A DNA stretch of 64,000 nt from an uncultured Clostridia bacterium (lineage in GTDB: Bacteria > Bacillota > Clostridia > Christensenellales > Borkfalkiaceae), in assembly GCA_944340905.1 (NCBI GenBank), contig CALVLT010000008.1:2173-66172 (forward strand), written 5' to 3'. This document shows positions 4,231 to 60,351 of this stretch, piece after piece. The translations under genes were made by a program, and so were the position numbers. The stretch's first letter is position 1. Each line of letters opens with the position of its first letter. The notes beneath the pieces were generated by a model, which saw only the letters and a list, made by a program, of their open reading frames with translations, was not told the origin of the DNA and did no database searches.

Positions 4231-5438
4231 AATTGTTGACGCGAAAAAAGAACAGACCACATCAGTTCGCGCTGCTGCTTGGGCTGCTATTATTGCTGCT
4301 TGCACTCGGCATAGGGGAGAGCGGAGCAAAGGCCTCGGCGTATACGACGGAGGAAGAGGCGGCGCTCGAACAGTTACAGACGCAGGTACAGGAATTGCTC
4401 GACGCGCTCGACACGCAGGAGTTGCAAGAATATCTTGATTCTCTCGCGCAGTTCGGCGGGCAGGACATCAAGGATACGCTTGCATCGGTGATTTCAGGCG
4501 ATTTCACGCTCGATTACGGCTCGCTTTGGCAGAGCGCGCTCTCCCTCTTGTTTGAAGAGGGGAGGACGATGCTCCCCGCCTTCGCCGTCGTTCTGGCAGC
4601 CGCGTTGCTCTGCGGGATTCTGAATTCTGCAAAAAATGGATTTTTGCAGAGTACTATGTCAGACATAATTAACTTTGCAGCCTATATTTCCGTCGGCGCC
4701 GTCGTGCTGGCGGTCCTGACGAGCGTACTGCAGACGGGGTTTTCAGCCATGCAGAGTATGCAGCGGCAAATGGAGATCGTCTATCCCATTTTGCTTACGC
4801 TCATGGCTGCCAGCGGGGGCTCCGTCTCGGCGGGGGTGTTCCGCCCCGCGGTCGCCTTTCTCTCGAGCGCGGTGTGCGAGCTGTTCACGTCCGTCGTACT
4901 GCCCACATCGGTTGTCGTCATTGTGCTTGCGTTCGTCGGCAACCTCTCGCCCGACGTGCGGACGGAAAAGCTCGGCGATCTGTTCAAGAGCATCAACAAG
5001 TGGCTCATCGGGCTGACGCTCGGCCTTCTCACCCTCTTTCTCACGGTGCAGGGGCTGTCGTCCGCACAGTATGATGGTCTTTCGCTGCGCGCCATCAAAT
5101 ACCTCGTCTCGGGATCGGTGCCCATCGTGGGCGGATTTTTATCGGGCGGGGTGGACCTCGTCCTGGCGGGGAGCGCGCTCATCAAAAATGCGCTCGGGTC
5201 CTTTGCCGTGTTTCTGCTCTTCGGCGCGCTGCTGCGCCCCGTGCTGCTGTTTGCGGCATTTCAGCTCTTCCTGCGGCTCTGCGCGGCGGCGACCGAACCT
5301 GCAGGCGGAAAGATCTCCGCATTTTTGTCGCGCCTCGCCGCAGACAGCGGATTTTTTCTTGCGGGGCTGTTGTGCGTGGCGTTCCTGTATTTTCTTACGC
5401 TCGTACTGCTGGTGTGTTCCACGGGGGTGATCTTCTGA
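4227..5438 (+). CDS. spoIIIAE: stage III sporulation protein AE
   Basis: 403-aa polytopic membrane protein with a signal-like N-terminus, in the canonical operon position. Confidence 0.9.
   Translation: MKLLTRKKNRPHQFALLLGLLLLLLALGIGESGAKASAYTTEEEAALEQLQTQVQELLDALDTQELQEYLDSLAQFGGQDIKDTLASVISGDFTLDYGSLWQSALSLLFEEGRTMLPAFAVVLAAALLCGILNSAKNGFLQSTMSDIINFAAYISVGAVVLAVLTSVLQTGFSAMQSMQRQMEIVYPILLTLMAASGGSVSAGVFRPAVAFLSSAVCELFTSVVLPTSVVVIVLAFVGNLSPDVRTEKLGDLFKSINKWLIGLTLGLLTLFLTVQGLSSAQYDGLSLRAIKYLVSGSVPIVGGFLSGGVDLVLAGSALIKNALGSFAVFLLFGALLRPVLLFAAFQLFLRLCAAATEPAGGKISAFLSRLAADSGFFLAGLLCVAFLYFLTLVLLVCSTGVIF
4647..4672 (+). repeat. dispersed AT-rich quasi-palindrome, copy 1 (inside spoIIIAE)
   Basis: CAG AGTACTATGTC A GACATAATTAA. 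Confidence 0.9.
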
Positions 5439-5893
5439 TGAAGGCATATGTTCTGAGCATTGCGGGCGTTGTGCTGCTGACCGCAGTCATCGCCATCATT
5501 TCTCCGGGCGGAAAGATGGGGAAGTTCCTGAAGGGCGCGGCAAAACTCGTCATCCTGCTCGTCATGGTCTCGCCCCTTGCAACGCTGTTTACGGAAGGGG
5601 AACTCACCTTCGAGACAGCGGCGGTGGAGACGGACGACCAATATCTTGCCTACTGTGCCGAGGAACTTGCCGCCGCGGACGAGGCACAGATCTGCGAAAT
5701 GCTGCGCGAAACGTATGGCGTTCAGGCGGAGGCGGAGGTGTCGCGCGCGGCGGCTACAGGATTTCCCCATGAAAAAATCTGCATCAAAATCACCGATTTC
5801 GGAATAAACGGGCAGGACGAGCATATACATATTAGCGAAGAGATCGAAAGAGCACTCGAATCTCACTACGGGTGCGATGCGGAGGTCACATGA
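5438..5893 (+). CDS. spoIIIAF: stage III sporulation protein AF
   Basis: ATG at 5438 overlaps the spoIIIAE TGA (TGATG). MKAYVLSIAGVVLLTAVIAIISPGG.. has N-terminal TM helices. Confidence 0.7.
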   Translation: MKAYVLSIAGVVLLTAVIAIISPGGKMGKFLKGAAKLVILLVMVSPLATLFTEGELTFETAAVETDDQYLAYCAEELAAADEAQICEMLRETYGVQAEAEVSRAAATGFPHEKICIKITDFGINGQDEHIHISEEIERALESHYGCDAEVT

Positions 5894-6249
5894 AGGAAGC
5901 AATTCGCAGACTGTTCTCGAACAGGACGGCGCGCATCCTTCTCGTCGCATTCGCCGCACTCGTCCTGCTCATCGTCTGTTGGTTCGTGTTCGGCACTTCA
6001 GACGAACAGCCGACGGCGGCGCCGACGGAAGAGGAGGCACGGCTCGCCGCCATCCTGTCGGAGGTGGAGGACGCAGGGAACGTCTCCGTACTTATCACGG
6101 AAGAGGAGGGCGCGCCCGTGAGCGCCGTTGTCATGTTTGACGGAACGGACGGCATCCTCGTCCGCCTGCGGCTCACGCAGATCGCGGCGCGGGCGCTCAA
6201 TATCGCCGAAAACAAGGTGCTCGTCTGTCCGTCCGATGCCCGGAAATAA
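5890..6249 (+). CDS. spoIIIAG: stage III sporulation protein AG (short form)
   Basis: ATG 5890 overlaps the spoIIIAF stop (ATGA). It has one TM helix followed by a V/G-rich C-terminal domain. Assignment rests on position in the operon. Confidence 0.65.
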   Translation: MKEAIRRLFSNRTARILLVAFAALVLLIVCWFVFGTSDEQPTAAPTEEEARLAAILSEVEDAGNVSVLITEEEGAPVSAVVMFDGTDGILVRLRLTQIAARALNIAENKVLVCPSDARK

Positions 6250-6271
6250 TTATTTTGAAGGAGATAAAGTC

Positions 6272-6751
6272 ATGTCCAATACGAAGAAGATCGCCCTGAT
6301 GTCCACGCTTGTGCTGCTGCTCGCCGTGACCGCGATCTGCAACTTTGTGCTCGCGGGCACGCAGGCGCAGAACGTCAACGCCGACGTGCAGGCAAACTAT
6401 TTTACGACGTACCGCGCCGATCGCAATTCCACGCGCAGCGAAGAATTCGTACAGCTCGACAGCGTCATTTCCGCCTACGCGACGGATTCCGAGGAGTATG
6501 CTGCCGCCGTGGAACGCAAGCAGGAGCTTGTCGAAATGATGGAGGATGAGCTTGTCATGGAATCCATCATCAAGGCGATGGGATTTTCCGATGCGGCTGT
6601 CGCCATCGGGGATTCGGACAACATCAATATCTTCGTCAATTCGAGCGAACTGACGAGCGAGATGGTTACGAAAATCTTCTATGCACTCGAAGTGGAGCAC
6701 CAGATCCGCGACGGAAATATTATAATTATGCCCGTTTATGCGGAAAGTTGA
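6272..6751 (+). CDS. spoIIIAH: stage III sporulation protein AH
   Basis: GAAGGAG Shine-Dalgarno 7 nt upstream of ATG 6272. It has an N-terminal TM helix and is the last gene of the block. Confidence 0.65.
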   Translation: MSNTKKIALMSTLVLLLAVTAICNFVLAGTQAQNVNADVQANYFTTYRADRNSTRSEEFVQLDSVISAYATDSEEYAAAVERKQELVEMMEDELVMESIIKAMGFSDAAVAIGDSDNINIFVNSSELTSEMVTKIFYALEVEHQIRDGNIIIMPVYAES

Positions 6752-6811
6752 AAAAAACAGTGGTAATTCGCAAAAAGATGTGCTATAATAGTCTCGGTAA
6801 AGGAGACGGTT

Positions 6812-7186: not shown

Positions 7187-7247
7187 CTGAAAAGGGTCTG
7201 CGTTCCCTCTCGGCAGCGGGAGGGAACGCTTGCATGAGGAAAACGAT

Positions 7248-9362: not shown

Positions 9363-11072
9363 ATGAGAGAAATATCGGACGGGGAGCTGAAAGAGGCTTC
9401 CCTTTGCCAACTAAAGGAGCTTTGCGAGCAGCTGCGCGAAGAAATTTTCCGCACCGTTTCCCGACGGGGCGGGCACCTTGCCTCCAACCTCGGTGTGGTG
9501 GAACTCACGGTGGGTCTGCACAAAGTGTTTGATTTCCCGCGCGACAAGATCGTATTTGACGTCGGGCACCAGTGCTATGCGCACAAGCTGCTCTCGGGGC
9601 GGGCGGAACAATTTTCCACGCTGCGTACCCGCGGCGGCATCTCCGGCTTTCCCAAGCGCAGGGAGAGCGAGTATGACTGCTATGAGACGGGGCATGCTGG
9701 AACGGCCGTCTCCGCGGCGCTCGGCATCGCAAAGGCGCGCGATCTGAAGGGAGAGGGGTTTGAAGTCGTTGCACTCGTCGGGGACGGGTCCTTCAACAAC
9801 GGACTCATTTACGAAGCGCTCAACAGCCTGAAGATTCTGAAAACGCGCGTACTGATCGTTCTGAATGACAACGGCATGTCCATTTCGCCGACGGTGGGCG
9901 GCACGCATGAGATCCTCAACGAAATGAAGGATGGGGCGGCGCCCGCGACCGATATCGCGCTCTTTGAGAGGTACGGACTGCGCTATATGGGCATATACAA
10001 CGGCAACGACTTGCAGGAGCTGCTCCCCGCGCTGGAACAGGCAAAGGATGTGCTGCGCACACAGAGCGTGCTTTTGCACGTGACGACGCGCAAGGGGCAG
10101 GGTTATGCCTTCTGCGAGCAGGAGCCGGAGCGCACGCACGGCGTATCGCCGAACGGAACGGGAACGGAGTATTCCGCGGCGCTCGGCGAAGAGCTGAAGG
10201 AGATGGCCAAGGCTGATCGGCGCATCGTTGCCGTGAGCGCCGCCATGACTGATTCGCTGGGCCTTCGTCCCTTCTTTGAGGCGTTTCCCGAGCGCGCCTT
10301 TGACGTGGGCATCTGTGAAGAACACGCCTGCGTCCTGTGTGCCGCGCTTGCGGAAGAGGGGATGCGACCCTATTACGCCATCTATTCCACCTTTTTGCAG
10401 CGCGCCTTTGACGAGGTGATCCACGATGTCTGCGGGCAGAATCTGCCCGTGACGTTCTGCATCGACCGTGCGGGGGTGACGGGTGCGGACGGCGAAACGC
10501 ACCAGGGGGTATTCGACCTCTCCTATCTCACGCCCATTCCCAATCTGACGATCGCCGTTCCGAAGAACATTGCGGAACTGCGCGCCATGCTGCGCATGAG
10601 CGCGGATTTCGGCGGTCCGCTCGCCATCCGCTATCCGCGCGAGGGGACGGAAGGAGCATGCAGCGGCATTGAAATCGGGAGATTTGAAATTTTACATAGT
10701 ACTACGTCTGACATAATTATCTACGCCTGCGGGGAGCGCTGCCTTTCGTTGGCGGAGCGCATCCGTACCGCCGCGCAGCAAAAGGGCGCCGATTTCACGC
10801 TCGTCAATGCGCGGTTTGTGAAGCCCGTGGATACGAAGATGATCCTTTCCCGTCCGGAAACGCACGTGATCACACTGGAGGACAACGTGCTGACGGGCGG
10901 TCTCGGCGATGCGATCGCGCGCGTTCTGCGCGGCAGCGGGAAGTGCCTGCGCGCATTCGGCTATCGTGATACCTTCCTGCCGCACGGCTCCGCGGCGGAG
11001 CTTGCGGGAGAATTCGGGCTGAACTTTGACGAGATCCTGTCCTATATCTTAGACTGCCATGCGTGCGGATAG
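9363..11072 (+). CDS. dxs: 1-deoxy-D-xylulose-5-phosphate synthase
   Basis: In-frame ATG 9363 of ORF 8541..11072. GGHLASNLGVVELTVGLH and GHQCYAHKLLSGR are Dxs signatures. The upstream part of the ORF is read-through across ispA. Confidence 0.95.
   Translation: MREISDGELKEASLCQLKELCEQLREEIFRTVSRRGGHLASNLGVVELTVGLHKVFDFPRDKIVFDVGHQCYAHKLLSGRAEQFSTLRTRGGISGFPKRRESEYDCYETGHAGTAVSAALGIAKARDLKGEGFEVVALVGDGSFNNGLIYEALNSLKILKTRVLIVLNDNGMSISPTVGGTHEILNEMKDGAAPATDIALFERYGLRYMGIYNGNDLQELLPALEQAKDVLRTQSVLLHVTTRKGQGYAFCEQEPERTHGVSPNGTGTEYSAALGEELKEMAKADRRIVAVSAAMTDSLGLRPFFEAFPERAFDVGICEEHACVLCAALAEEGMRPYYAIYSTFLQRAFDEVIHDVCGQNLPVTFCIDRAGVTGADGETHQGVFDLSYLTPIPNLTIAVPKNIAELRAMLRMSADFGGPLAIRYPREGTEGACSGIEIGRFEILHSTTSDIIIYACGERCLSLAERIRTAAQQKGADFTLVNARFVKPVDTKMILSRPETHVITLEDNVLTGGLGDAIARVLRGSGKCLRAFGYRDTFLPHGSAAELAGEFGLNFDEILSYILDCHACG
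10695..10720 (+). repeat. dispersed AT-rich quasi-palindrome, copy 2 (inside dxs)
   Basis: CAT AGTACTACGTC T GACATAATTAT. Confidence 0.9.
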
Positions 11073-17752: not shown

Positions 17753-17766
17753 AAATTGACATTTAG

Positions 17767-17792
17767 CATAGTAATATGTATGACATAGTATT
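17767..17792. repeat. dispersed AT-rich quasi-palindrome, copy 6 (intergenic between the carboxypeptidase gene and lysA; degenerate, near-symmetric)
   Basis: CAT AGTAATATGTA T GACATAGTATT(GT). Confidence 0.75.
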
Positions 17793-17823: not shown

Positions 17824-17853
17824 TTGACCGCATCGCACAAAATATGGTATAAT
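17824..17853 (+). promoter_or_regulatory. sigma-A-type extended -10 promoter abutting the lysA start
   Basis: TTGACC-N18-TGgTATAAT. The -10 box ends 6 nt before ATG 17860. Confidence 0.5.
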
Positions 17854-17859
17854 AGGCGT

Positions 17860-19188
17860 ATGATTCACACAAGAGATACTCTGAAGATCAACGAAAAGGG
17901 ACACCTGGAGATCGGCGGTGCGGACTGCGTCGAGCTTGCCGCGCAATTTTCCACGCCGCTCTACGTCTTTGACGAGGCATATATCCGCCGCATGATGCGC
18001 GTGTATCAGGATACAATACAGGCGGAGTACGACGGCCACGGACTTGTGCTGTATGCGTCCAAGGCGTTTTCCTGCGAGGCGATCTACGCCATCGCAAAGC
18101 AGGAGGGCATCGGCGTGGACGTCGTATCGGGTGGAGAACTCTACACGGCGCTGCGTGCGGGATTCCCTGCGCAGAAGATGACCATGCACGGCAACAACAA
18201 ACTCCCGCATGAGATCGCGGAAGCGCTCGACGCAAAAGTCGGCATGATCGTGGTCGATTCCTTTTCGGAGGCCGACCTCATCGAGGAGGAGGCGGCAAAG
18301 CGCGGACGGGTACAGGACGTGCTCATCCGCATCAATCCGGGCGTGGAGGCGCACACGCACGCCTATGTGCAGACGGCAACGCCCGATTCCAAGTTCGGGT
18401 TCTCGGTGGCAAACGGCGCGGCGGAGGAAATGACCGCCCACGTGCTCGCCAAGCCCCACTTAAAGCTGCACGGGTATCACTGCCATATCGGTTCGCAAAT
18501 TTTTGAAAAGCAGTCCTTTGTGCTCGCGGTTCAAAAGAATCTTGCCTTTATGGCCGAGATGAAGAAAAAGCTCGGGTTCGAGGCGGATGCGCTGAACATG
18601 GGGGGCGGGTTCGGCATCTGGTATGCCGAGGGCGATGCGATGATCGATGTCGACGGCTATGCCGGCTATCTGCGCGCGCTGCTCACCACCATCAAAGACG
18701 GGTGCAGGGAGCTGGGTCTGCGCCGCCCGTTCGTCTATCTGGAGCCCGGCCGCTCCATCGTCGGCGAGGCGGGCATCACGCTCTACACCGTGGGGGCGAT
18801 CAAGGAGATTCCGGGCATCCGCAAATATGTCGCGGTGGACGGGGGAATGTTCGATAATCCCCGCTATGCGCTCTATCAGAGCAAATACACCGCCGTGCTC
18901 GCCAACCGCGCGGCGGAGGAACCCTGTGAACTTGTGTCCATTGCGGGCAAGTGCTGCGAGAGCGGCGACCTGATCGGGGTGGATTTCAACCTGCCGAAGG
19001 CGCGCACGGGCGACCTGATTGCCGTCCTTTCGACGGGCGCCTACAACTATTCGATGGCGTCCAATTACAACCGCAACTTCATTCCCGCAGCCGTGCTCGT
19101 CAAAGACGGCAAGGCGGATTATATCGTGAAACGTCAGACCTACGAAGACCTGGTGCGCAACGACGTCATCCCCGATCGGCTGAAATAA
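17860..19188 (+). CDS. lysA: diaminopimelate decarboxylase
   Basis: Internal ATG of ORF 17776..19188 gives MIHTRDTLKINEKGHLEIGG.. PLP-fold motifs are present (YASKAF, GGGFGI, CESGD). The upstream 28 codons are hydrophobic and overlap the promoter. Confidence 0.9.
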   Translation: MIHTRDTLKINEKGHLEIGGADCVELAAQFSTPLYVFDEAYIRRMMRVYQDTIQAEYDGHGLVLYASKAFSCEAIYAIAKQEGIGVDVVSGGELYTALRAGFPAQKMTMHGNNKLPHEIAEALDAKVGMIVVDSFSEADLIEEEAAKRGRVQDVLIRINPGVEAHTHAYVQTATPDSKFGFSVANGAAEEMTAHVLAKPHLKLHGYHCHIGSQIFEKQSFVLAVQKNLAFMAEMKKKLGFEADALNMGGGFGIWYAEGDAMIDVDGYAGYLRALLTTIKDGCRELGLRRPFVYLEPGRSIVGEAGITLYTVGAIKEIPGIRKYVAVDGGMFDNPRYALYQSKYTAVLANRAAEEPCELVSIAGKCCESGDLIGVDFNLPKARTGDLIAVLSTGAYNYSMASNYNRNFIPAAVLVKDGKADYIVKRQTYEDLVRNDVIPDRLK

Positions 19189-24558: not shown

Positions 24559-25158
24559 TCAACGGAAGGAGCGCAAAAGTCCTATGACCTTGCCGAGGAT
24601 GCGCACATCGTCGAGCACATAATCGGAGAGCGCGCTGTTTTCTGGGTGCAGAACGATCTTCCCGTTCCTGCGGTAAAATCGCTTGACGGTGGCGCCCTCC
24701 TCGATGCCGTCATCGAACATCGCCACGACGATATCGTCATTGTCGGCGGTCTCCTGCTTTCTGACGACGATCTTGTCGCCGTCAAAGATGCCCGCCTCGA
24801 TCATGCTGTCACCCTTGACGGTGAGCAGAAAGAGATCATCGCCCGAAAATTCCGCCGTGGGGAGGGTGTAGTAGCCCTCATAATTTTCCGTGGCAAGGAT
24901 GGGGGTACCTGCCGTGACGGTACCCACGAGGGGCACGCGCACTGTGCCCGTATTGGCAAGCGCAACGGCACGCTTTTTCCCCGCCGTCTTCTGCAACAGA
25001 CCCATCTCTTTGAGGCGGTTGACATAATCATACGCCGTTGCGGTCGATTTGATATGCAGTTCGGCGCAGATATCGCGCACGGTGGGCGGAAAGCCGTTTT
25101 CGTCGGTATATCGGTCAATAAAGGCAAGCACGACGTCCAGTTTGCGTTTGTCCAACAT
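24559..25158 (-). CDS. lexA: LexA SOS repressor
   Basis: N-terminal winged HTH (PPTVRDICAEL..) and a C-terminal S24 peptidase domain with GDSM (Ser) and VVRK (Lys). Confidence 0.95.
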   Translation of the reverse strand: MLDKRKLDVVLAFIDRYTDENGFPPTVRDICAELHIKSTATAYDYVNRLKEMGLLQKTAGKKRAVALANTGTVRVPLVGTVTAGTPILATENYEGYYTLPTAEFSGDDLFLLTVKGDSMIEAGIFDGDKIVVRKQETADNDDIVVAMFDDGIEEGATVKRFYRRNGKIVLHPENSALSDYVLDDVRILGKVIGLLRSFR

Positions 25159-25181: not shown

Positions 25182-25210
25182 ATTATAGCATACTTTCCGC
25201 CAGATTGCAA
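25182..25210 (-). promoter_or_regulatory. lexA promoter
   Basis: On the - strand: TTGCAA-N17-TGcTATAAT, followed by an AAGGAG SD and ATG 25158. Confidence 0.55.
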
Positions 25211-25220
25211 ACATTTGTTC
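25209..25220. promoter_or_regulatory. LexA (Cheo-type) SOS box
   Basis: - strand aGAACAAATGTTTGc compared with the Gram-positive consensus CGAAC-N4-GTTCG. It overlaps the -35 of the lexA promoter. Confidence 0.6.
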
Positions 25221-25251
25221 TAAATAATTTGCAAAATTTTTCCGCAAACGC

Positions 25252-25287: not shown

Positions 25288-25494
25288 ATGGAAAGAAAGA
25301 TGTGTATTCTGGACGAAGAAAAGGAGTGCGACGGCTGCCTGGAGTGCGAAGTATGCGACCTGGACCCGAATAAAATCTGTGACAACTGCGGAAAGTGCCT
25401 GGAGATCAGGGAATACGCCGCAATCCGCATTGATAAATTGTATACCGATCCGGCAGAGTACGAACGGGAGGAACAAAAAAAGGGGACGCGCTGA
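25288..25494 (+). CDS. small cysteine-rich protein (8 Cys), unknown function, divergent from lexA
   Basis: 68 aa from ATG 25288 (MERKMCILDEEKECDGCLECEVCDLDPNKICDNCGKC..). Cys spacing is C-x7-C-x2-C-x2-C-x2-C-x8-C-x2-C-x2-C. It has its own promoter and terminator. Confidence 0.5.
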   Translation: MERKMCILDEEKECDGCLECEVCDLDPNKICDNCGKCLEIREYAAIRIDKLYTDPAEYEREEQKKGTR

Positions 25495-26095: not shown

Positions 26096-27307
26096 CTATT
26101 CCTGTTTCAGAAAACCACGGAATTTGGCGGCGTGCTCGATGGGAATGACCGCCTCGACCAGCGTGCCGTCGTCGGTATAGCGTACACTGCGTTCGGTGAT
26201 GAGCGGGCGCAGCGCGGCGTACTGCGCCGCCTGTGCATACGGAACGAACAGTTCGCCCGTTACAAATTTGTCCGCCATCGCCTCGTAAATCTTCTTCCTG
26301 AGCAAGGGCAGTCCCGTGCCGTATTTCGCGCTGATGCAAATAGCATCCTTCGGCTCATGCGCCTCCTGCGGCATGCGGTCGCACTTGTTCATGACGATCA
26401 GATAGGGGGAGGAAAAGCCCAGCCCGCGCAGCGTCTGCAGCGTCGTTTCGAGCTGCATGGCGTAGTCGCCGCCCGCATCGCATACGATGAGCGCCAGGTC
26501 GCAGTGCAGCGCGCTCTCCAGCGTCGATTTGAATGCATCGATGAGATGGTGGGGTAGATCGCGCAGAAATCCGACGGTGTCTGTCAGCAAAAAATCCATG
26601 CCCTCGATCTCTACTTTGCGGGAGGTGGGGTCGAGTGTGGCAAACAGGGCATCGCGGACGAGCACGTCTGCGCCCGTGAGCGCATTCAAAAGGGTGGATT
26701 TTCCCGTGTTCGTATAGCCGACGAGCGCGATCGTGCGCGCGCCGTCCTTTTTTCTGCGCTCGGTCAGCATGCCGCGCCGCCGCTCGGTCGCGCGCAGTTT
26801 TTCCTCGAGCGTGCGGATGCGGGCGCGGATGTGCCGCCTGTCCGTCTCCAACTGGGTTTCGCCCGGCCCGCGCGTTCCGATGCCGCCCCCGAGACGGGAG
26901 AGCGCCCCGCCCTTGCCCTTCAGCCGCGGATAGAGATAGCGCAGCTGCGCAAGTTCCACCTGCAATTTGCCCTCGCTGCTCTCGGCGCGCAGCGCAAAGA
27001 TGTCGAGGATGAGCGTCGTGCGGTCGATGACCTTTGTACCGAGCGCCTCCGAAAGGTTTGCCGTCTGCGCGGGGGACAGTTCTCCGTTGAACAGAACGGT
27101 CTGATCGGCGTCCCGAAGCAATTCCCGCAGCTCGGCGACCTTGCCTTCGCCCAAGTACGTCGCGGGGTCGACCGTGCGGATTCTGACATACATGGTGCCC
27201 GTACAGAGGGCGCCCGCACTCTCGATGAGCGCGACGGCCTCCGCATGCAGTTCGTCGGCAGAGCGATCGTGCACGGGCTGCACGAGAAAGACGTTCTCCT
27301 CGATCAT
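26096..27307 (-). CDS. hflX: GTPase HflX
   Basis: 403 aa with an HflX N-domain and G-domain motifs GYTNTGKSTLLNALTG, DTVGF and NKCD. Confidence 0.95.
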   Translation of the reverse strand: MIEENVFLVQPVHDRSADELHAEAVALIESAGALCTGTMYVRIRTVDPATYLGEGKVAELRELLRDADQTVLFNGELSPAQTANLSEALGTKVIDRTTLILDIFALRAESSEGKLQVELAQLRYLYPRLKGKGGALSRLGGGIGTRGPGETQLETDRRHIRARIRTLEEKLRATERRRGMLTERRKKDGARTIALVGYTNTGKSTLLNALTGADVLVRDALFATLDPTSRKVEIEGMDFLLTDTVGFLRDLPHHLIDAFKSTLESALHCDLALIVCDAGGDYAMQLETTLQTLRGLGFSSPYLIVMNKCDRMPQEAHEPKDAICISAKYGTGLPLLRKKIYEAMADKFVTGELFVPYAQAAQYAALRPLITERSVRYTDDGTLVEAVIPIEHAAKFRGFLKQE

Positions 27308-28371
27308 GAAGGGTCCTCCGGAGGGCGGTGCAGCCTGACCGCCTCCGCCACCGAGCGGCGATGATCCTCCGTGATGGCGGCATAGTGCTTGCGCGTCGTG
27401 TTCACGTCGCGGTGTCCGAGTACGTCCGCCACGATATAGATGTCGCCCGTCTCGCGGTAGAGCGCCGTGCCATAGGTGGAACGCAGCTTGTGCGGCGTGA
27501 TTTTTTTGAGAGGGGAGACGATTTTCGCATATTTCTTGACGAGATTTTCCACGGCGCGCACGGAGATGCGGCGGTATTGCAACGAGAGAAAGAGGGCATG
27601 TTCCTCGGGCGGGACGCGCGGATCGTTCTCCTTCTGCGCGAGATAGGCGCCGAGCGCATCGCCGACTTCCTCCGAAAAGTACAAAATGGCCTTGTTCCCG
27701 CCCTTGCGCGTCACGACAAAGGAATTGTTGGAGAAGTCGATGCTCTCATTGTTCAGGCCGACCAGTTCGGAAATACGGATGCCCGTACCCAAAAAAAGCG
27801 TGAGGATTGCGCTGTCGCGCACCTTCGTCCGGTCGTGATAGCCGCTGGCATGGGGAGACAGCCCGTCGCCGTACTCGGCGGTATCGAGCAGGGAAGAGAC
27901 CTCGTCGCTCTCCAGACGGATGATCTCCTTTTCGTGCAGCTTGGGCGTCGGAACTTTGGTCGTCTGATTGGACTCGATAAGGCCCTTGTTGAAGAAGTAT
28001 TTGAACATGGAGCGCACGGTCGAAAGCTTGCGCGCCTTGGCGCGCTCGTCGCAGGAGAGGCGCTTTCCGCCGTACCGATAGTTAGAGAGATAGCTCAGAA
28101 ATATCTCGACGTCGGTATCGGTGATTTGCTCCATGTCATCCAGCGTCAGCGCCGTCACTTCTTTCCCGCGGAATTTTTTCTGCACGAGAAAATCAAAGAA
28201 GATGCGCAGATCGTAGACATAATTCAGCCGCGTGAGAACGCTCGTTCGCGTCTCAATGCCGCGCAGAAAGTCCTCACAGAAGGGGGGCAGCGTTTCTAGC
28301 AGCTCATTGATCCTGTCAAGATTCTTCAGATTGCGTTCCTGATAATAATCGCCGTGTTGATTCTTCGCCAT
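27304..28371 (-). CDS. tyrosine site-specific recombinase, Xer family (XerS-like architecture)
   Basis: Internal ATG 28371 of ORF 27304..28503. Catalytic region has ..GIRISEL.., HKLRSTYGT and GHRDVNTTRKHY. The VTRKGGN motif and an N-terminus pairing LPPFCEDFL with ..YDLRIFFDFL recall XerS. The stop overlaps the hflX start. Confidence 0.8.
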   Translation of the reverse strand: MAKNQHGDYYQERNLKNLDRINELLETLPPFCEDFLRGIETRTSVLTRLNYVYDLRIFFDFLVQKKFRGKEVTALTLDDMEQITDTDVEIFLSYLSNYRYGGKRLSCDERAKARKLSTVRSMFKYFFNKGLIESNQTTKVPTPKLHEKEIIRLESDEVSSLLDTAEYGDGLSPHASGYHDRTKVRDSAILTLFLGTGIRISELVGLNNESIDFSNNSFVVTRKGGNKAILYFSEEVGDALGAYLAQKENDPRVPPEEHALFLSLQYRRISVRAVENLVKKYAKIVSPLKKITPHKLRSTYGTALYRETGDIYIVADVLGHRDVNTTRKHYAAITEDHRRSVAEAVRLHRPPEDPS

Positions 28372-28377
28372 GCCATC

Positions 28378-28406
28378 ATTATACCATAAAAAGGGAAATC
28401 CGTCAA
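28378..28406 (-). promoter_or_regulatory. extended -10 promoter abutting the recombinase start
   Basis: - strand TTGACG-N17-TGgTATAAT. The -10 box ends 6 nt before ATG 28371, with no SD. Confidence 0.5.
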
Positions 28407-28433
28407 TTTTACGAAGAGTTGAGCCAAAATTTT

Positions 28434-28514: not shown

Positions 28515-28554
28515 CATAACTATTCGCAAAATGCAGCTTTTACGAATAGTTATG
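28515..28554. repeat. perfect 12-bp inverted repeat
   Basis: CATAACTATTCG-N16-CGAATAGTTATG. Confidence 0.9.
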
Positions 28555-28762: not shown

Positions 28763-28788
28763 ACAAGTACTATGTCAGACATACTATT
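28763..28788. repeat. dispersed AT-rich quasi-palindrome, copy 3 (just 3' of the GH13 stop codon)
   Basis: ACA AGTACTATGTC A GACATACTATT(GT), nested in the larger inverted repeat CACAAGTAC..GTACTTTTGTG. Confidence 0.9.
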
Positions 28789-33039: not shown

Positions 33040-33171
33040 TTGGATTATCTCTCCCGAAAAAAAGTATCGCAATGTGAGTGCGCCCTGCAGGCGCAAGAAC
33101 AGAAAAACAGAGGGGCAAGAAGCCAAGCAATCTCTGCCCCTCCTCTCTTCCCGTTCTGAAAGTCCGGCCGC

Positions 33172-34764: not shown

Positions 34765-34819
34765 AGATAACCTCCTTATCATTCCCCTTATTTCAAGATT
34801 TTAGTGCCTTGCCGCGCAA

Positions 34820-35938: not shown

Positions 35939-35942
35939 TTGT

Positions 35943-37139
35943 TTACTCCCCCTTATAGTCCTTGTCAAGGATCTGGCCGCCGGCGACCTGTGCGCCCGCG
36001 CCGATCGTGATATTCCTGCCCAGCACCGCGATGCCGGCGCTCTTTTCCCGCTCCTCGCCGACAACGGCGCCGCTCTCGATGACGGTGTTCTCGTCCACGA
36101 TGGAATAGAGTACTTTGGCGCCCCTGCGCACGACTGCCCCCGCCATGAGGATACTGTCTACGACTTCCGCCCCCTCTTCCACCACGACGTTGCTCGAGAG
36201 AACGGAGTTGATGACCGTTCCGCCGATCTCACAGCCCAGAGAGATGAGCGAGTTTCCGATGACCGCCTTTTCCCCGATATATTCGGGCGGCGCAAGCGGA
36301 TTGCGCGAATGGATCTTCCAGTCGGGATCGTTCACATCGAAGGCAGGCTCTTCGCCCAGAAGGTCCATGTTCGCCTCCCAAAGCGAGGAGATGGTGCCGA
36401 CGTCCTTCCAGTAACCGCTGAACCGGTAGGAGAACATCTTTTCTCCCGCATTCAGCATGGCGGGGAGCACGTCCTTGCCGAAGTCCTTGCTTGAGCTGGG
36501 ATTTTCGTCGTCCTCGGTCAGGTACTTGAAGAGCTTGCTTGCCGTAAAGATGTAGATGCCCATCGAGGCGAGGTTGCTCTTGGGCTGTTTGGGCTTTTCC
36601 TCGAACTGATAGATCGAGCCGTCCTCGTTGGTGTTGAGGATGCCGAAACGGGACGCTTCCTTCATAGGGACCTCGATGGCGGCGATGGTGCAGTCCGCCC
36701 CCGTCGCCTTGTGCGCCTTGAGCATGGCAGCATAGTCCATCTTGTAGATATGGTCGCCCGAAAGAATGAGGACGTAGTCGGGATTGTACTTCTGCATGAA
36801 CGCCATATTCTGATAGATGGCGTTTGCCGTGCCCTCGAACCAGGACGATTTCTTCTTCGCCTGATAAGGCGAGAGAATATGGACGCCGCCGAAGGAGCGG
36901 TCAAGGTCCCACGGCTGTCCGTTTCCGATATATTCATTCAGTTCGAGCGGCTCGTACTGCGTGAGCACGCCCACCGTATCGATGCCCGAATTGATGCAGT
37001 TCGAGAGCGGGAAATCGATGATGCGGTACTTCCCTCCGAACGCAACCGCCGGCTTTGCAATGTTGTTCGTGAGCGCGTAGAGGCGGCTGCCTTGTCCGCC
37101 CGCGAGCAGCATTGCGACACATTCTTTCTTTCTTTGCAT
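35943..37139 (-). CDS. glgC: glucose-1-phosphate adenylyltransferase
   Basis: [34 protein letters not shown] and a left-handed beta-helix C-terminus. Confidence 0.95.
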
Positions 37140-37169
37140 AAAGAACCCCCTGATATCATTTCGTTTTGT

Positions 37170-39185
37170 CTATTTCATCGGCGTTTTTGCCGCAGAACCC
37201 TTTGCCGCCGCGCCCGTCCGCTTTGCCGCGGGCCGCGCTGCTCTTTCTTCTTCCGCCTCGCGCACCAGGTACAGACAGGTCAGCTTGGGCATATCGATGC
37301 CGATGGAGAACTGTTTGCCATGGCTGGGCTTTTTGACGGAGGAGAGCACCCGCTTTCCGAGCTTTCCCTCCCCGCCGTATCTCTTGTCGTCCGTGTTGAA
37401 CAGCAACCTGTATTTCGCACGCTGCGGCACGCCGAGGCGGTAGCCCGGCATATCCACACCCGAGAAACACACGACGGCGATGACTTCGTTCCCCGTCCTG
37501 TCCCTGCGGGCGAATGCCACGATATTCTTGTCAGCATCGTCGGGCGCGAGCCATTCAAAGCCGTCCCAGGAATCCTCAACCTCGTAGAACGCGGGCGTCG
37601 TGCGGTAGAGATCGTTGAGCTCCCTGACCATCAGCGAGAGCTTTCCGTGCAGCTCGTAGCTGTCGCGCAGGAAGAATTCCAGCCCCTCGTGGTAGTCCCA
37701 TTCCTTGAACTGTCCGAACTCATAGCCCATGAAGTTGAGCTTTTTCCCCGGGTGCGCCATCATGTAGCCAAGGAAGGAGCGCACGCCCGCAAACTTTTCC
37801 TCATACGTTCCCGGCATCTTGTTGATGAGCGAACACTTCCCGTGCACCACCTCGTCATGCGAAATGGGAAGGACATAGTTCTCTGAAAAGGCATACATCA
37901 TGGAGAAGGTCAGCTTGCTGTGGTTATAGCTCCTGAAATAGGGATTGAGGCAGATATACGAGAGCATATCGTTCATCCAGCCCATATTCCACTTGAAATT
38001 GAACCCCAGCCCGCCGACGGAACCGGGCTTGGTGACAAGCCCCCACGCCGTCGATTCCTCCGCGATCATGAGCGCATACGGATAGCGCAGGAACACCGCC
38101 TCATTGAGCCTTCTGAGGAAGGCGATGGCCTCCAGGTTCTTGTTTTCGCCGTAGATATTGGGCACCCACTCCCCGGGGCGCTTGTCGTAATCGAGATAGA
38201 GCATGGAGGCGACGGCATCCACGCGCAGTCCGTCCACATGGAATTTATCGAAGAAGAAACAGGCGTCCGAAATGAGGAAGGAGAGCACCTCGTTGCGGCC
38301 GTAATCAAAGCGGCGGGTGCCCCAGCTCTTGTGCTCCATCCTGTCCCACTGGCTGCTCTCATACAGCGGCTGCCCGTCAAATTCGTACAGGCCGTGCGCA
38401 TCCTTGGGGAAGTGCGCGGGCACCCAGTCGAGGATGACGCCGATGCCCGCCCTATGGAATTCATCGACAAGGTACATAAAGTCCTTGGGCGTGCCCATGC
38501 GGGAGGTGACGGCAAAGTAGCCCGTCACCTGGTAGCCCCACGAACCCTCAAAGGGGAATTCGGTCACGGGCATGAATTCCACGTGCGTATAACCCATCTC
38601 CTTGACGTAAGGCACAAGCTCGCGCGCAAGGTCGAGATAGGAATAGAAGTTCCCGTCCGCATGCCGTTTCCATGAGAGCAGGTTGACTTCATAGATATTC
38701 ATGGGAGAGGCAAAAATATTCCGTTTGCCGGTCTCTTCAAAATATGACTTGTCCTTCCACTCGTAGCCCTCGAGGTCGTAGAGCTTGGAGGCGGTCGCGG
38801 GCGGCGTCTCGGTGTGGAATCCCACGGGGTCCGCCTTCATCAGCTGCCTGCCGTCGGCGGCCGTGATGCAGTACTTATAGGTGTCGTACTCTTTCAGCCC
38901 GGGGATAAAGCGTTCAAAGCTCTCTCCGTCTACCATGCGCTCCATCACGTGGCTGTCCGCATTCCAATTGTTGAAGTCGCCCACGACGCTGACGCTGCGC
39001 GCGTGCGGCGCCCAGACGCGGAATACGTAGCCCTCCTGCCCGTCGCGCACCTCTTTGTGCGCGCCGAACAGCTCATAGATACGGTCGTTCTTGCCGTGGT
39101 GGTAGAGATAGAGCGGGAAATCGTTCATGCTGCCCTCCCTCTCCTGTGTACGCTGTTCCTGACTGAGCATCTTGTTCTCTTCCAA
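37170..39185 (-). CDS. glgB: 1,4-alpha-glucan branching enzyme
   Basis: GH13_9 signatures (DWVPAHF, GLRVDAVASM, AEESTAW). The start is uncertain: TTG 39185 has a GGAG SD, with alternatives ATG 39170 and 39128. Basic Ala/Lys-rich C-terminal tail. Confidence 0.9.
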   Translation of the reverse strand: MEENKMLSQEQRTQEREGSMNDFPLYLYHHGKNDRIYELFGAHKEVRDGQEGYVFRVWAPHARSVSVVGDFNNWNADSHVMERMVDGESFERFIPGLKEYDTYKYCITAADGRQLMKADPVGFHTETPPATASKLYDLEGYEWKDKSYFEETGKRNIFASPMNIYEVNLLSWKRHADGNFYSYLDLARELVPYVKEMGYTHVEFMPVTEFPFEGSWGYQVTGYFAVTSRMGTPKDFMYLVDEFHRAGIGVILDWVPAHFPKDAHGLYEFDGQPLYESSQWDRMEHKSWGTRRFDYGRNEVLSFLISDACFFFDKFHVDGLRVDAVASMLYLDYDKRPGEWVPNIYGENKNLEAIAFLRRLNEAVFLRYPYALMIAEESTAWGLVTKPGSVGGLGFNFKWNMGWMNDMLSYICLNPYFRSYNHSKLTFSMMYAFSENYVLPISHDEVVHGKCSLINKMPGTYEEKFAGVRSFLGYMMAHPGKKLNFMGYEFGQFKEWDYHEGLEFFLRDSYELHGKLSLMVRELNDLYRTTPAFYEVEDSWDGFEWLAPDDADKNIVAFARRDRTGNEVIAVVCFSGVDMPGYRLGVPQRAKYRLLFNTDDKRYGGEGKLGKRVLSSVKKPSHGKQFSIGIDMPKLTCLYLVREAEEERAARPAAKRTGAAAKGSAAKTPMK

Positions 39186-50075: not shown

Positions 50076-50104
50076 ATCATATTGGATTTGTCCGAAAAAG
50101 TCAA
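50076..50104 (-). promoter_or_regulatory. aroH-cmk promoter
   Basis: - strand TTGACT-N17-TATGAT, giving a ~35-nt leader. Confidence 0.45.
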
Positions 50105-50123: not shown

Positions 50124-50149
50124 TATATTATGTCTGACATAATACTATG
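50124..50149 (-). repeat. dispersed AT-rich quasi-palindrome, copy 4 (intergenic, ~20 nt upstream of the aroH-cmk -35)
   Basis: - strand CAT AGTATTATGTC A GACATAATATA. The central 19 nt form a perfect palindrome. Confidence 0.9.
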
Positions 50150-50161
50150 ATAAAATTCGAT

Positions 50162-56853: not shown

Positions 56854-56861
56854 GAGTGAAT

Positions 56862-56894
56862 AAAAAAATGCCGCAAATTCGACGGCATTTTTTT
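56862..56894. terminator. bidirectional terminator
   Basis: A7-TGCCG-caaattcga-CGGCA-T7. Confidence 0.65.
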
Positions 56895-56901
56895 GCTGAA
56901 T

Positions 56902-57843: not shown

Positions 57844-57846
57844 GAT

Positions 57847-58935: not shown

Positions 58936-58994
58936 ACCTTATTACCTCACCCGATATTCATACCACGCGCGGGCAGGTTTCAAACGTATTTTTC

Positions 58995-60221
58995 TCAGAA
59001 CGCCCAGTTGCCGCCTTGGAAGATCGCGACCTTTTCCCCGCTCCTGGTGACGCCCGTAATACTCAAATCCTTGCTGCCGATCATGAAATCGACGTGGATC
59101 ATGCTGTCGTTGATGCCGTGTTCCTTGAGCTGCTCGTTGGTCATGTCCTCATAGCCGCGCACGCAGTTGCCGAACCCCCTGCCGAGCGCAAGGTGACAGC
59201 TTGCATTTTCGTCAAAGAGCGTGTTGTAGAAGAGGATCCCGAGGTTGTTGATGGGAGAATCGTAGGCAATGAGCGCGCACTCGCCGAGCATCGCCGCGCC
59301 CTCGTCCATCGAGACCATCTTCTCGAGCAGTTCCTGGTTCTTTTCCGCCTTCACTTCGACCACCTTGCCGTGCGCAAAGCGGACGGAGAAATTCTCGACG
59401 AGCTGACCCTGGTAGGAGAGCGGCTTGGTGGCATACACGATGCCGTCCACATCCCCCGCGCGCGGCGAAGTGAAGATCTCCTCGGAAGGAATGTTCGGAT
59501 TGTAATATCTGCCCTTCAGATCGCTTTCGCCGCCCCCCATGAAGAGCGCATCAGGCAGCAGTCCCACGCGCAGGTCGGTGCCGTTGGACGAATGATATTC
59601 AAGCGCGACAAGCCCGAGGCGGTTGAGGTGATCGCAGCGCTTGGCAAGCTCGTCATTGTGGCGCGCCCATGCGCGCACGGGGTCCGGCCCGTCCGCACGC
59701 GACGCCTTGAGAATGGCGTCCCACAGCGCATCGACGGCGCGGTTCACCTGCATGTGCGGGAACACCTTTTTCGCCCACGCCTTGCCGGGAACGGCAGCGA
59801 TGCACCACGGGTATTGATTCTCCATTTGATCGCGGTAGGGCTTGATGATCTTCATGCGACCGATGGTGACGGTGCGCATCTTCTCCTGATCGACGCCGGC
59901 AAGCCCGTCCGGATCCTCGGAGATGATATGCAGCATGGAGGGCAGTTCCTTGGTGTACAGCTCCCAGCGCGCCTGCTCCCATGCGGGAACGGCGGAGAGC
60001 ACTTCCGGCTTTTCATACTTGTACTTCAGCTTGGTGAGCGGCTGGTGCGACCACTCCACCGTGACCTTTCCCGCGCCCGCGCGGTACAATTCTTCCACCA
60101 CCCATTCCACGAATTCCGGCTGGTCGAGGCCCGCATTGACGATCACCCACTGTCCGCGCCTGACATTGATCCCCGTCTTGGCAAGCAGTTTTGCATAGCG
60201 TTTGAGTTGCAGCTTATTCAT
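58995..60221 (-). CDS. M29-family aminopeptidase (AmpS/PepS-like)
   Basis: ATG 60221 (MNKLQLKRYAKLLAKTGINV..) with a GGAGGA SD, 408 aa. Confidence 0.85.
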   Translation of the reverse strand: MNKLQLKRYAKLLAKTGINVRRGQWVIVNAGLDQPEFVEWVVEELYRAGAGKVTVEWSHQPLTKLKYKYEKPEVLSAVPAWEQARWELYTKELPSMLHIISEDPDGLAGVDQEKMRTVTIGRMKIIKPYRDQMENQYPWCIAAVPGKAWAKKVFPHMQVNRAVDALWDAILKASRADGPDPVRAWARHNDELAKRCDHLNRLGLVALEYHSSNGTDLRVGLLPDALFMGGGESDLKGRYYNPNIPSEEIFTSPRAGDVDGIVYATKPLSYQGQLVENFSVRFAHGKVVEVKAEKNQELLEKMVSMDEGAAMLGECALIAYDSPINNLGILFYNTLFDENASCHLALGRGFGNCVRGYEDMTNEQLKEHGINDSMIHVDFMIGSKDLSITGVTRSGEKVAIFQGGNWAF

Positions 60222-60251
60222 AATATCCTCCGTATACGGCTTTTTTGCACC

Positions 60252-60280
60252 ATTATAACGCATCCGCGCAAAATAGTCAA
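60252..60280 (-). promoter_or_regulatory. aminopeptidase promoter
   Basis: - strand TTGACT-N17-TATAAT. Confidence 0.5.
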
Positions 60281-60325
60281 TCCCTGCAGACACAATAAAA
60301 AATGCGGGAACCTGCCCGCATCTTC

Positions 60326-60351
60326 TATATTATGTCAGATATAGTACTACG
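60326..60351 (-). repeat. dispersed AT-rich quasi-palindrome, copy 5 (last codons and stop of nrdG)
   Basis: - strand CGT AGTACTATATC T GACATAATATA. Confidence 0.9.

Follow-up and report, generated by a model that had tools for sequence, protein, structure and literature searches.

The 64-kb stretch of DNA analysed here, referred to as the window, contains six copies of the sequence TATGTCWGACATA, each with no more than one mismatch, whose cores lie at positions 4655-4667, 10703-10715, 17775-17787, 28771-28783, 50129-50141 and 60331-60343. The preliminary description of this DNA had reported six such copies, three of them with perfect cores; all six are present, three being perfect and three having one mismatch. 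Its view that this number exceeds chance is also borne out, as 0.21 copies are expected from dinucleotide shuffling and none of 100 shuffled sequences reached six. The copies are placed regardless of gene boundaries, as had been noticed: two lie inside coding sequences (spoIIIAE and dxs), one coincides with the nrdG stop codon, and three (copies 3, 4 and 5) are intergenic.

Copy 1 (4642..4670, + strand), composed of TTTTGCAGAGTAC, TATGTCAGACATA and ATT, lies within spoIIIAE, where it encodes ..LQSTMSDII.. inside an uninterrupted Pfam SpoIIIAE match (2-320/321), and is invariant in the alignment of orthologs from seven species. Copy 2 (10690..10718, + strand), composed of TTTTACATAGTAC, TACGTCTGACATA and ATT, is located in the 3' part of dxs, within the Pfam Transketolase_C domain, and its ortholog is likewise kept in seven aligned species. 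The presence of the motif in orthologous dxs and spoIIIAE genes of relatives, put forward earlier as a check, was thus found in seven species for each gene. In orthologous genes these two copies stand at the same place and do not vary even at synonymous codon positions, while column identity over the whole alignments averages 74-78%. Copy 3 (17762..17790, + strand) separates a D-Ala-D-Ala carboxypeptidase gene from lysA, its centre ~80 nt upstream of the predicted transcription start, with the promoter TTGACC-18-TATAAT at 17824-17853. Copy 4 (28766..28788, unstranded), AGTAC TATGTCAGACATA CTATT, is the most symmetric of the six and lies directly 3' of an alpha-amylase gene; its position is occupied by a double site in three relatives (L072, L083 and L108). 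Copy 5 (50126..50154, - strand) is located between a HI0933-like flavoprotein gene and aroH-cmk, upstream of a predicted promoter at 50076-50104, and has orthologous copies in L013 and L091. Copy 6 (60328..60356, - strand) takes in the TAA stop of nrdG; an intrinsic terminator (60297-60319) and the promoter of an M29 peptidase gene (60252-60280) come after it.

At 221 bp from copy 4 there is a dif-like palindrome (28519..28550, unstranded), ACTATTCGCAAAA-TGCAGC-TTTTACGAATAGT, of 13-6-13 layout, with 0 occurrences expected by chance; its arms were found only in xer-syntenic loci. It adjoins a gene for a XerS-like single tyrosine recombinase (27304..28371, - strand), whose orthologue in sister lineages is directly followed by a PadR-family gene. 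The sign of the GC skew changes at ~31-33 kb, and the region is assigned to the terminus from the skew and the dif-like palindrome, not from a closed genome. The Xer protein itself is an unlikely binder of the motif, since the motif arms differ from those of the dif-like site.

The motif is a palindromic DNA site of protein type and is under selection. In full, the element is bipartite, consisting of a strong palindrome, AGTAY-TATGTC-W-GACATA-RTA (equivalent to TACT-N11-AGTA), usually accompanied on one side only by an auxiliary TTTTGCAT, which precedes AGTAC in four of the six window copies; A/T tracts within it are phased. The asymmetry of the flanks described earlier is real, with AGTAM on one side and RTA/ATT on the other, and extends further into TTTTGCAT; the element is polar. 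None of the parS, NBS, matS, ram, LexA and NrdR consensus sequences is matched, in agreement with the preliminary description, and a LexA box was rejected.

Relatives were scanned by exact pattern, with one genome per species. They carry the motif at more than 119 loci among the matches listed, nearly all in MAGs of uncultured gut Clostridia and belonging to one clade, with a density of ~1 per 10-50 kb; in the closest sister lineage examined, a related palindrome is present in a single copy only. Among the matches listed, 122 of 156 copies (78%) are intergenic, and the number of sites per intergenic kb is 1.04 for co-directional, 0.83 for convergent and 0.27 for divergent regions, so that divergent promoter regions hold 3-4-fold fewer copies than convergent ones, between whose genes 21 of the listed copies lie. 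Many intergenic copies are situated upstream of canonical promoters at variable offsets of 55-120 nt, five-copy arrays precede dgt-dnaG, and the Shine-Dalgarno sequences of thrS, folA and pyrE each have a copy directly beside them. The genes beside the copies (spoIIIA, dxs, thrS, glmS, miaA, folA, xer and nrdG) share no functional theme.

Among the matches listed, copies within coding sequences are sense in 33 cases and antisense in one, though an antisense frame is open; in co-directional intergenic regions 58 copies are co-oriented with the genes and 19 are not; and the sign of the GC skew matches copy orientation in 86 of 98 copies. In the frame of the window, all 25 copies left of the dif-like site are '+' and all eight beyond 30 kb are '-', with a cluster of mixed orientation 170-490 bp to the right of the dif-like site (28.72-29.04 kb). 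The copies at ~25.5 kb, in the interval that would tell replication-linked from transcription-linked polarity, are at the same time 3' of a small gene of like orientation and fit either kind. Of the 119 listed loci 23 fall within the 64-kb syntenic block, and by one measure enrichment near dif among these matches is no more than 2.5-fold. Given the conserved copies in coding sequences, the excess of convergent over divergent regions, the polarity flip at the dif-like site and the enrichment in the syntenic block, the distribution resembles that of architectural sites more than a classical regulon.

Among 75 site-adjacent genes, PadR is the sole recurring DNA-binding family, with six matches. 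The products of these genes are 570-712 aa long, with a PadR domain at the N terminus, then a charged coiled coil, and a transmembrane domain at the C terminus; the gene is known from the genomes of relatives, and none is present in the 64-kb window. In eight species a site lies 11-24 nt (mostly ~12) upstream of the TTGACA-17-TATAAT promoter of the PadR gene, and a ninth species has a degenerate copy there. The DNA-binding domain of the candidate is of the PadR-s2 type; its AlphaFold model matches cdPadR1 (5dym) with a target-normalised TM-score of 0.82 and 37% identity. Judged from sequence, the motif most likely serves a PadR-type winged-helix protein as docking site, an assignment made because of gene adjacency and operator resemblance, and the best candidate for the binder is the membrane-anchored protein with the PadR domain, coiled coil and transmembrane part, which has a conserved copy at its own gene. 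The 9 bp at the centre, TGTCWGACA, are unlike the AT-rich core of the cdPadR1 operator, which counts against PadR.

To account for the observed motif, its conservation, polarity, location classes and PadR gene linkage, we tentatively infer a binder, a binding mode and a function, at rather less than an even chance: the copies may be polar chromosomal binding sites of a PadR-s2 protein, a protein of RTP-like fold. A single dimer would read the inverted repeat ACTATG...CATAGT (TACT-N11-AGTA), and the overlapping second half-palindrome with its T-tract (TTTTGCATAGTAC), present on one side only, would serve as an auxiliary contact of lower strength and render the complex polar. The copies appear to be sited where they would do little harm (in the single open reading frame inside genes, at gene ends and between transcription units) and so oriented that both transcription and replication would meet the auxiliary side first, the two orientation groups converging on the dif-like site. 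From this placement, orientation and convergence they may be read as chromosome-level sites rather than as operators of the classical kind; around the terminus they would organise either a directional barrier or a tether to the membrane. The earlier interpretation was right in part: an architectural-like, selected palindrome stands, and the PadR operator match, the copies upstream of promoters and the polarity had been missed. The single-copy palindrome of the closest sister lineage and the modest enrichment near dif count against this preferred reading; so does the 78% intergenic share which, with the many copies just upstream of promoters and the dgt-dnaG arrays, fits a regulator.

A regulatory role is indeed possible on account of these intergenic, promoter-upstream copies, and the main rival, itself unlikely but to be taken seriously, is a classical operator of a global PadR-family transcription regulator, bound as a dimer or as higher oligomers on arrays. 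It would act near promoters or as a roadblock inside operons, and the polarity would only mirror co-orientation with the regulated genes. PadR family members are transcription factors, the motif is similar to the cdPadR1 operator and has a copy in an autoregulatory position, and the copies 55-120 nt upstream of the canonical promoters of lysA, aroH-cmk, the pepM29 gene and the PadR gene, as well as those at dgt-dnaG and at the three Shine-Dalgarno sequences, are where an operator might be sought. However, the promoter offset is not fixed, divergent promoter regions are poorer in copies than convergent ones, which offer nothing to regulate, copies in mid-CDS are conserved, the neighbouring genes lack a common theme, and orientation flips at the dif-like site. 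That almost all copies are transcribed and sense (33:1 in coding sequences, in 3' UTRs ahead of terminators, few in divergent regions), with the thrS leader copy placed between a terminator and the Shine-Dalgarno sequence, could instead point to a sense-strand RNA element recognised by a protein or RNase in mRNAs, UTRs and operon junctions. We regard this as improbable: the six window copies have no common fold (z-scores -2.5 to +1.9), no covariation is seen where the hairpin would be extended, C standing opposite A in 81 of 156 listed copies, and the PadR-gene copy lies upstream of that gene's predicted promoter; no Rfam match was found, and the exact dyad symmetry on either side of an unconstrained central W is typical of a dimer bound to duplex DNA.

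Still less probable is that the motif is itself a promoter, read by a housekeeping or alternative sigma factor and, in spoIIIAE, dxs and miaA, lying inside the gene. Precedents for such internal promoters exist in B. subtilis (spoIIIA operon) and E. coli (miaA), the motif contains the hexamers TTTGCA and CATAAT, and copies are co-oriented with downstream genes; yet the spacing is 15 bp, these genomes have separate canonical TTGACA-17-TATAAT promoters, the implied start in thrS, folA and pyrE would fall inside or after the Shine-Dalgarno sequence, and 21 listed copies lie between convergent genes. A -10-like hexamer was not enriched at a fixed distance from the copies. The smallest chance of all is given to a selfish or uptake-related repeat (MITE, REP-like element or DNA uptake sequence), suggested by a multi-copy AT-rich palindrome whose phased A/T tracts recall the flanks of the Haemophilus USS. 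Against it, copies keep their orthologous positions in species with flanking proteins of 55-80% identity, the host domains are free of insertions and gaps and target-site duplications are absent, in line with the earlier exclusion of a MITE or IS, and viral contigs have 10 matches, about the estimated chance number. The density of ~1 per 10-50 kb and the strong strand bias also speak against the uptake sequence that had been offered as an alternative. A sigma-A promoter, an RNA structure, a MITE and a phage element were rejected.

Several known systems resemble the proposed polar sites of a PadR-s2 protein. The inverted repeat TACT(N11-12)AGTA, EMSA-tested as the binding sequence of cdPadR1 (CDR20291_0991), a PadR-s2 protein of Clostridioides difficile, is common to its operator and the motif, and box 3/4, AGAGTACTATGTATTATTATAGTAAAT, shares AGTACTATGT and ATAGTA with the motif (PMC5050560). 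cdPadR1 and the candidate each have a site at the promoter of their own gene, and about half of the predicted genomic matches to the cdPadR1 motif lie in ORFs or between convergent genes (PMC5050560). In contrast, the centre here is the invariant, GC-containing TGTCWGACA, an extra TTTTGCAT is present on one side, the motif is conserved clade-wide with its CDS copies, and the candidate, unlike the soluble, 109-aa cdPadR1, carries a long coiled coil and a transmembrane domain.

PadR-s2 proteins and RTP have a common topology, dimer organisation and probable DNA-binding mode (PMC3506622), and RTP sites are polar and bipartite, with a strong and a weak part, rtp being autoregulated (PMC10331603). 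As in RTP/Ter of Bacillus subtilis, there are two opposed orientation groups around the terminus and a site at the candidate binder's own gene; the permissive orientation in B. subtilis is that in which the auxiliary side is met first, as in normal travel here. The likeness to a fork trap would be one of analogy: the candidate is membrane-anchored and is not placed in the RTP family by Pfam or by sequence, the motif has no more than CTATGT in common with the Ter consensus KMACTAANWNNWCTATGTACYAAATNTTC (PMC3317982), and extrapolation from density would give tens of copies spread over the genome against about nine Ter sites in B. subtilis. The tethers RacA/ram (B. subtilis), RocS (S. pneumoniae) and RicO/ricS (S. 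aureus) combine an N-terminal winged helix, a coiled coil and a membrane anchor, as the candidate binder does, and use a handful to tens of specific sites, coding and non-coding, that cluster in one chromosomal region (bioRxiv 10.64898/2026.03.06.710092). They differ in their DNA-binding domains, which are of MerR or other type, and in relying on an amphipathic helix or DivIVA instead of a polytopic transmembrane domain; the region that they mark is that of the origin, and polar sites are not reported for them. Copies of the motif also lie far from the dif block, and sequence and protein family differ from those of MatP/matS and XerD/XDS. The matS site is a 13-bp palindrome of 6-1-6 layout. 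In E. coli (MatP/matS) and B. subtilis (XerD/XDS) multiple sites around dif organise the terminus or unload SMC (PMC11894783); similarly, the sites described here are enriched beside the dif-like site and the Xer gene, and the candidate gene is xer-linked in sister lineages.

A search of the window with the core palindrome TATGTCWGACATA (TATGTC-W-GACATA), allowing up to two mismatches, recovers six copies, three perfect and three with one mismatch, and these are exactly the six listed in the preliminary description. Numbered by position, copies 1 (4642..4670), 2 (10690..10718) and 3 (17762..17790) are in the + orientation, copy 4 (28766..28788) is the most symmetric, and copies 5 (50126..50154) and 6 (60328..60356) are in the - orientation. 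The claim that such a set is not expected by chance holds: at the window's G+C content of about 58%, dinucleotide shuffles give an expectation of 0.21 copies, and none of 100 shuffles gave six. The same genome is also present in ENA as a 122-kb metagenome scaffold. The gene contexts noted before are borne out by Pfam: copy 1 lies within SpoIIIAE, where the family-model match is unbroken, copy 2 within the Transketolase_C domain of Dxs, copy 6 supplies the TAA stop of the nrdG ORF, and copies 3, 4 and 5 are intergenic. In the sense orientation a single open frame leads through the motif, L-H-S-T-M-S-D-I-I, and it is used by all co-oriented copies within coding sequences. The extended consensus, (phased A/T tracts)-TTTTGCAT-AGTAC-TATGTC-W-GACATA-RTA, comprises two overlapping palindromes, CATAGTACTATG and the core, with A/T-rich positions at 10-11 bp intervals on both sides of the latter. 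The TTTTGCAT part is one-sided in most copies and thereby defines their orientation; some copies are fully symmetric 39-mers, TTTTGCATAGTAY TATGTCWGACATA RTACTATGCAAAA. The consensus AGTAC TATGTCWGACAT AGTA can also be written TACT-N11-AGTA, the centres of ACTATG and CATAGT being 11 bp apart.

At least 119 loci match the pattern AGTAYTATGTCWGACATA, ascertained on AGTAY plus the perfect core, in the GTDB collection scanned with one genome per species. The matches listed derive nearly all from uncultured Clostridia MAGs from the gut of rabbits, chickens, ruminants and humans. Candidatus Gallimonas, Candidatus Neoclostridium, Pumilibacteraceae and one Christensenella-like MAG are among them; only two or three among those listed are chance-like. 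The motif occupies orthologous positions in spoIIIAE, dxs and the 3' part of miaA (seven species each), in the interval between leader and Shine-Dalgarno sequence of thrS (five species), and upstream of dgt-dnaG, glmS, a U32 peptidase gene, thyA-folA and pyrE. In DNA alignments of the spoIIIAE and dxs orthologues, a comparison proposed earlier, the motif block of about 30 nt is invariant, third codon positions included, and synonymous changes are frequent in its flanks, the mean column identity overall being 74-78%. The block is thus under selection at the DNA level, and in spoIIIAE, dxs and miaA such selection overrides synonymous drift. Invariance at orthologous positions excludes a recent mobile insertion, and the earlier view that the element is not a MITE or IS stands; a REP element is rejected likewise. 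Alignments and Pfam matches run without gaps across the copies. Multiple copies also occur. Five-copy arrays of mixed orientation, with spacings of 25, 21, 39 and 23 bp, precede a dGTPase-like HD gene followed by dnaG in two loci from other genomes (L018, 7397-7517; L086, 5606-5726), and a third locus, L032, has two copies in the same place. In another locus, L101, two mutually inverted double-copy modules of about 57 nt each (687-743 and 2413-2469) bracket about 1.7 kb encoding small membrane proteins; the pair might represent a regulatory cassette that is invertible or has been duplicated.

The location of copies was assessed with a home-made, self-trained codon-usage gene caller on the 156 copies among the loci listed whose core has no more than one mismatch. 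Coding sequences contain 34 of the 156, 33 in the sense and one in the antisense orientation, though an antisense frame is open. Among the same loci, 58 copies in co-directional intergenic regions are co-oriented with the genes and 19 opposed, and convergent regions hold 21 copies, divergent ones only seven, with four or five of the seven at a single orthologous locus. Normalised to intergenic length, the densities are 1.04 copies per kb in co-directional, 0.83 in convergent and 0.27 in divergent regions. In the comparison with GC skew that had been suggested, 98 copies have a clear asymmetry, and the orientation of 86 of them agrees with the sign of the local skew, a figure confounded by gene direction. 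Recognisable TTGACA-17-TATAAT promoters lie downstream of copies at variable offsets, with site centres at -55 to -120, among them those of lysA, aroH-cmk and the M29-peptidase gene in the window. Within 17824-17862 the predicted lysA promoter ends 6 nt ahead of the called ATG, implying either a leaderless mRNA or a true start further downstream.

Copy 4 adjoins a gene for a single XerS-like recombinase (27304-28371), for which XerS gives the best score, below the curated cutoff. About 150 bp upstream of this gene lies a dif-like 13-6-13 palindrome, ACTATTCGCAAAA-TGCAGC-TTTTACGAATAGT (28519-28550), with zero occurrences expected by chance and arms found only in xer-syntenic loci; the window gave no match to the dif consensus of B. 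subtilis or E. coli. In streptococci the dif site is adjacent to xerS, and the present layout is reminiscent of that arrangement. A half arm, TTCGTAAAATTGAC (28402-28415), abuts the -35 element of the xer promoter and therefore suggests autoregulation of the XerS-like gene. The genes switch strand at 24.1 kb and the sign of the GC skew reverses at about 31-33 kb; the replication terminus is thus probably contained in the window. Also encoded here are scpA and scpB (19.9-21.4 kb), and the dif-like region is followed immediately on its right by the complete set of glycogen operon genes, glgP, glgA, glgD, glgC and glgB (30613-39185, minus strand). When all copies from syntenic loci are placed in the frame of the window, every one left of the dif-like site is + (4.6, 10.7, 16.1, 17.7, 22.9 and 25.5 kb), paired or nearby copies at 28.72-29.04 kb are of mixed orientation, and all those at 30.6-60.3 kb are -. 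The bipartite polar sites may thus form two opposed groups with the switch at the dif-like site, a pattern again confounded by gene direction; the copies at about 25.5 kb are the only ones in the interval that discriminates transcription-linked from replication-linked polarity, and these have a small co-oriented gene on their 5' side. The 64-kb syntenic block holds 23 of the 119 loci among the matches listed, and among these loci extra copies occur once per 22 kb inside the block versus once per 54 kb elsewhere, the window itself having 1 per 11 kb. In sister lineages an orthologous xerS-like gene (53-58% identity) is directly followed by a PadR-family gene.

PadR is also the sole recurrent DNA-binding family, with six hits, among the 75 genes starting within 350 nt of a copy; the window itself contains no gene for a PadR-coiled-coil-transmembrane protein. 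The proteins encoded next to the sites, of 570-712 aa, have a PadR domain (PF03551) at the N-terminus and a multi-pass membrane domain at the C-terminus, with a long coiled coil rich in Glu, Arg and Ala in between. The TTGACA-17-TATAAT promoter of the PadR gene is preceded, at 11-24 nt and mostly about 12, by a perfect copy in eight species (L004, L034, L052, L069, L071, L080, L085 and L105) and by a degenerate one in a ninth (L021). This is the geometry expected of an autoregulated PadR operator, and the PadR upstream region of L123 has a TACT-N11-AGTA variant. The half-sites of TACT-N11-AGTA form an inverted repeat about one helical turn apart, as in PadR operators; those of PadR and LmrR are of the form ATGT-N8-ACAT. 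An AlphaFold model of the PadR domain, built with 38 homologues, has a mean pLDDT of 76 (81-95 in the winged helix-turn-helix core) and superimposes on cdPadR1, a soluble PadR-s2 protein of C. difficile (5dym), with a target-normalised TM-score of 0.82 and 37% identity. In EMSA experiments cdPadR1 bound inverted repeats of the form TACT(N11-12)AGTA, and AGAGTACTATGTATTATTATAGTAAAT is one of its boxes (PMC5050560). The motif AGTACTATGTCWGACATAGTA is identical to this box in the 10-nt left flank, the right flank and the N11 spacing, and differs only in the central bases. The cdPadR1 operator is the closest known match to the motif, and for this reason we infer a PadR-type dimer as its predicted binder.

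Sister lineages show variations on this theme. In L123 (3001-5040) and L127 (216-1964) the PadR domain and a 421-aa linker-plus-transmembrane protein are separate adjacent ORFs, unlike in the clade of the window, where the two parts are fused; this reflects either gene fission or fusion, or frameshifts that arose during assembly of the repetitive stretch encoding the coiled coil. In one human-gut species, represented by L124 (2940-2972) and 32 metagenome contigs (L139-L170), a palindrome AGTATTATGAAA-N9-TTTCATAATACT spans the -35 element of the PadR gene directly downstream of the xerS-like gene. It shares the half-site AGTATTATG with the motif, at a spacing 10 bp wider, and was rejected as a multi-copy variant of it, being single-copy at the xer-PadR junction.

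Several other identities were considered and rejected. The motif is not itself a dif/Xer site, as the dif-like palindrome is separate, 221 bp from copy 4, with different arms; TTTTGC..ATAGT of the motif can be likened to the dif arm TTTTGCGAATAGT only if a 2-bp gap is allowed, and the resemblance was treated as coincidence. Nor is it a LexA operator, as had been stated, since lexA of the window (24559-25158, minus strand) has its own canonical-type AAAC-N4-GTTC box in its upstream region, at 25208-25221, without a copy of the motif; a conserved Cys-rich ORF of 68 aa (25288-25494) is oriented divergently to lexA. Sigma-A promoters have a -35/-10 spacing of 16-18 bp and a transcription start upstream of the Shine-Dalgarno sequence. 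In the motif only 15 bp separate TTTGCA from CATAAT, canonical promoters occur nearby as distinct elements, and at the thrS, folA and pyrE copies the core is directly adjacent to the Shine-Dalgarno sequence, all of which argues against a sigma-A or sporulation-sigma promoter. A terminator is near only about 10% of copies, and just one copy lies upstream of a tRNA gene, so that neither an association with intrinsic terminators nor a tRNA/sRNA promoter fits. No Rfam hit was obtained at any copy, and predicted folds are inconsistent, with none shared and without covariation, C opposite A being the commonest combination at the hairpin-extending position; a structured RNA was therefore dismissed. 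The thrS leaders of L014, L017, L027, L096 and L102 show by eye a T-box sequence, AATTAAGGTGGAACCGCG, and a terminator, with no T-box reported at the Rfam gathering threshold; the motif stands between the terminator T-run and the Shine-Dalgarno sequence. A mobile element with tandem recombinases was discarded, the integrase neighbour being hflX and the pair conserved chromosomal synteny, and a phage origin likewise, as the ten hits in viral contigs are close to the estimated chance number. DNA uptake sequences show little strand bias and a frequency of roughly one per kb. The likeness to them raised in the preliminary description was abandoned given the strong strand bias of the motif and its density, about 1 per 10 kb for the window and about 1 per 22-54 kb for the remaining loci listed. 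The statement in that description that the known sites of chromosome-organising proteins do not match was upheld by eye against the consensus sequences of parS/ParB, NBS/Noc, ram/RacA, matS/MatP and SBS/SlmA (TGTTNCACGTGAAACA, ATTTCCCGGGAAAT, TGACGCCGGCGTCA, GTGACRNYGTCAC and GTGAGTACTCAC), all of which the core TATGTCWGACATA is unlike. A literature search with the literal motif sequence gave nothing relevant.

A PadR-type binder is compatible with more than one role. The copies may constitute a classical global PadR regulon, with the promoters downstream of copies and the site at the PadR gene itself on its side, and the copies inside coding sequences and the orientation switch at the dif-like site on the other; we consider this somewhat unlikely. 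Under this ordinary reading, the data would define an operator, an autoregulatory site and a partial target set for an uncharacterised membrane-anchored PadR-family protein. The RTP-like logic of the sites and the tether-like architecture of the protein lead us to favour, tentatively and as a possibility, polar, chromosome-level binding sites that would serve, around the terminus, as a directional barrier, a membrane tether or both. The narrower proposal that the sites and a PadR-s2 protein of RTP fold make up a replication-polar system, a fork trap or directional barrier, in Clostridia devoid of RTP and Tus seems to us improbable. In such a fork trap the sites would be permissive for travel from origin to terminus on both replichores, converging on the XerS-type dif site, and membrane tethering might occur via the coiled coil and transmembrane domain. 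It would be a third Ter-like system, independently evolved or anciently related, and would link PadR-s2 and RTP folds functionally.

To our knowledge, only the relatives of E. coli (Tus/Ter, MatP/matS) and of B. subtilis (RTP/Ter, XerD/XDS) have replication fork traps and terminus organisers that are described in detail, and other Firmicutes are usually assumed to be without them. With a clade-wide, highly specific, polar site family that converges on a dif-like site, and with a candidate binder of predicted RTP-type fold, the question becomes directly testable in gut Clostridia. No RTP-family Pfam hit was found on any scanned protein, and the best 50 Foldseek matches to the candidate are all PadR-s2, without an RTP entry; the fold similarity of PadR-s2 to RTP is taken from the literature (PMC3506622). 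The B. subtilis Ter consensus has only CTATGT in common with the motif and does not match it. Each RTP site pairs a strong with a weak dimer site, and this bipartite structure makes it polar; forks reaching the weak side first pass, and rtp is autoregulated by a site (PMC10331603). The motif likewise combines a strong part, the palindrome, with an auxiliary one, the one-sided half-palindrome, its apparently opposed groups flank the dif-like site with the auxiliary side facing the normal direction of travel, and a copy stands at the gene of the candidate PadR protein itself. In that protein the order of winged helix, coiled coil and membrane anchor parallels that of the chromosome tethers RacA, RocS and RicO.
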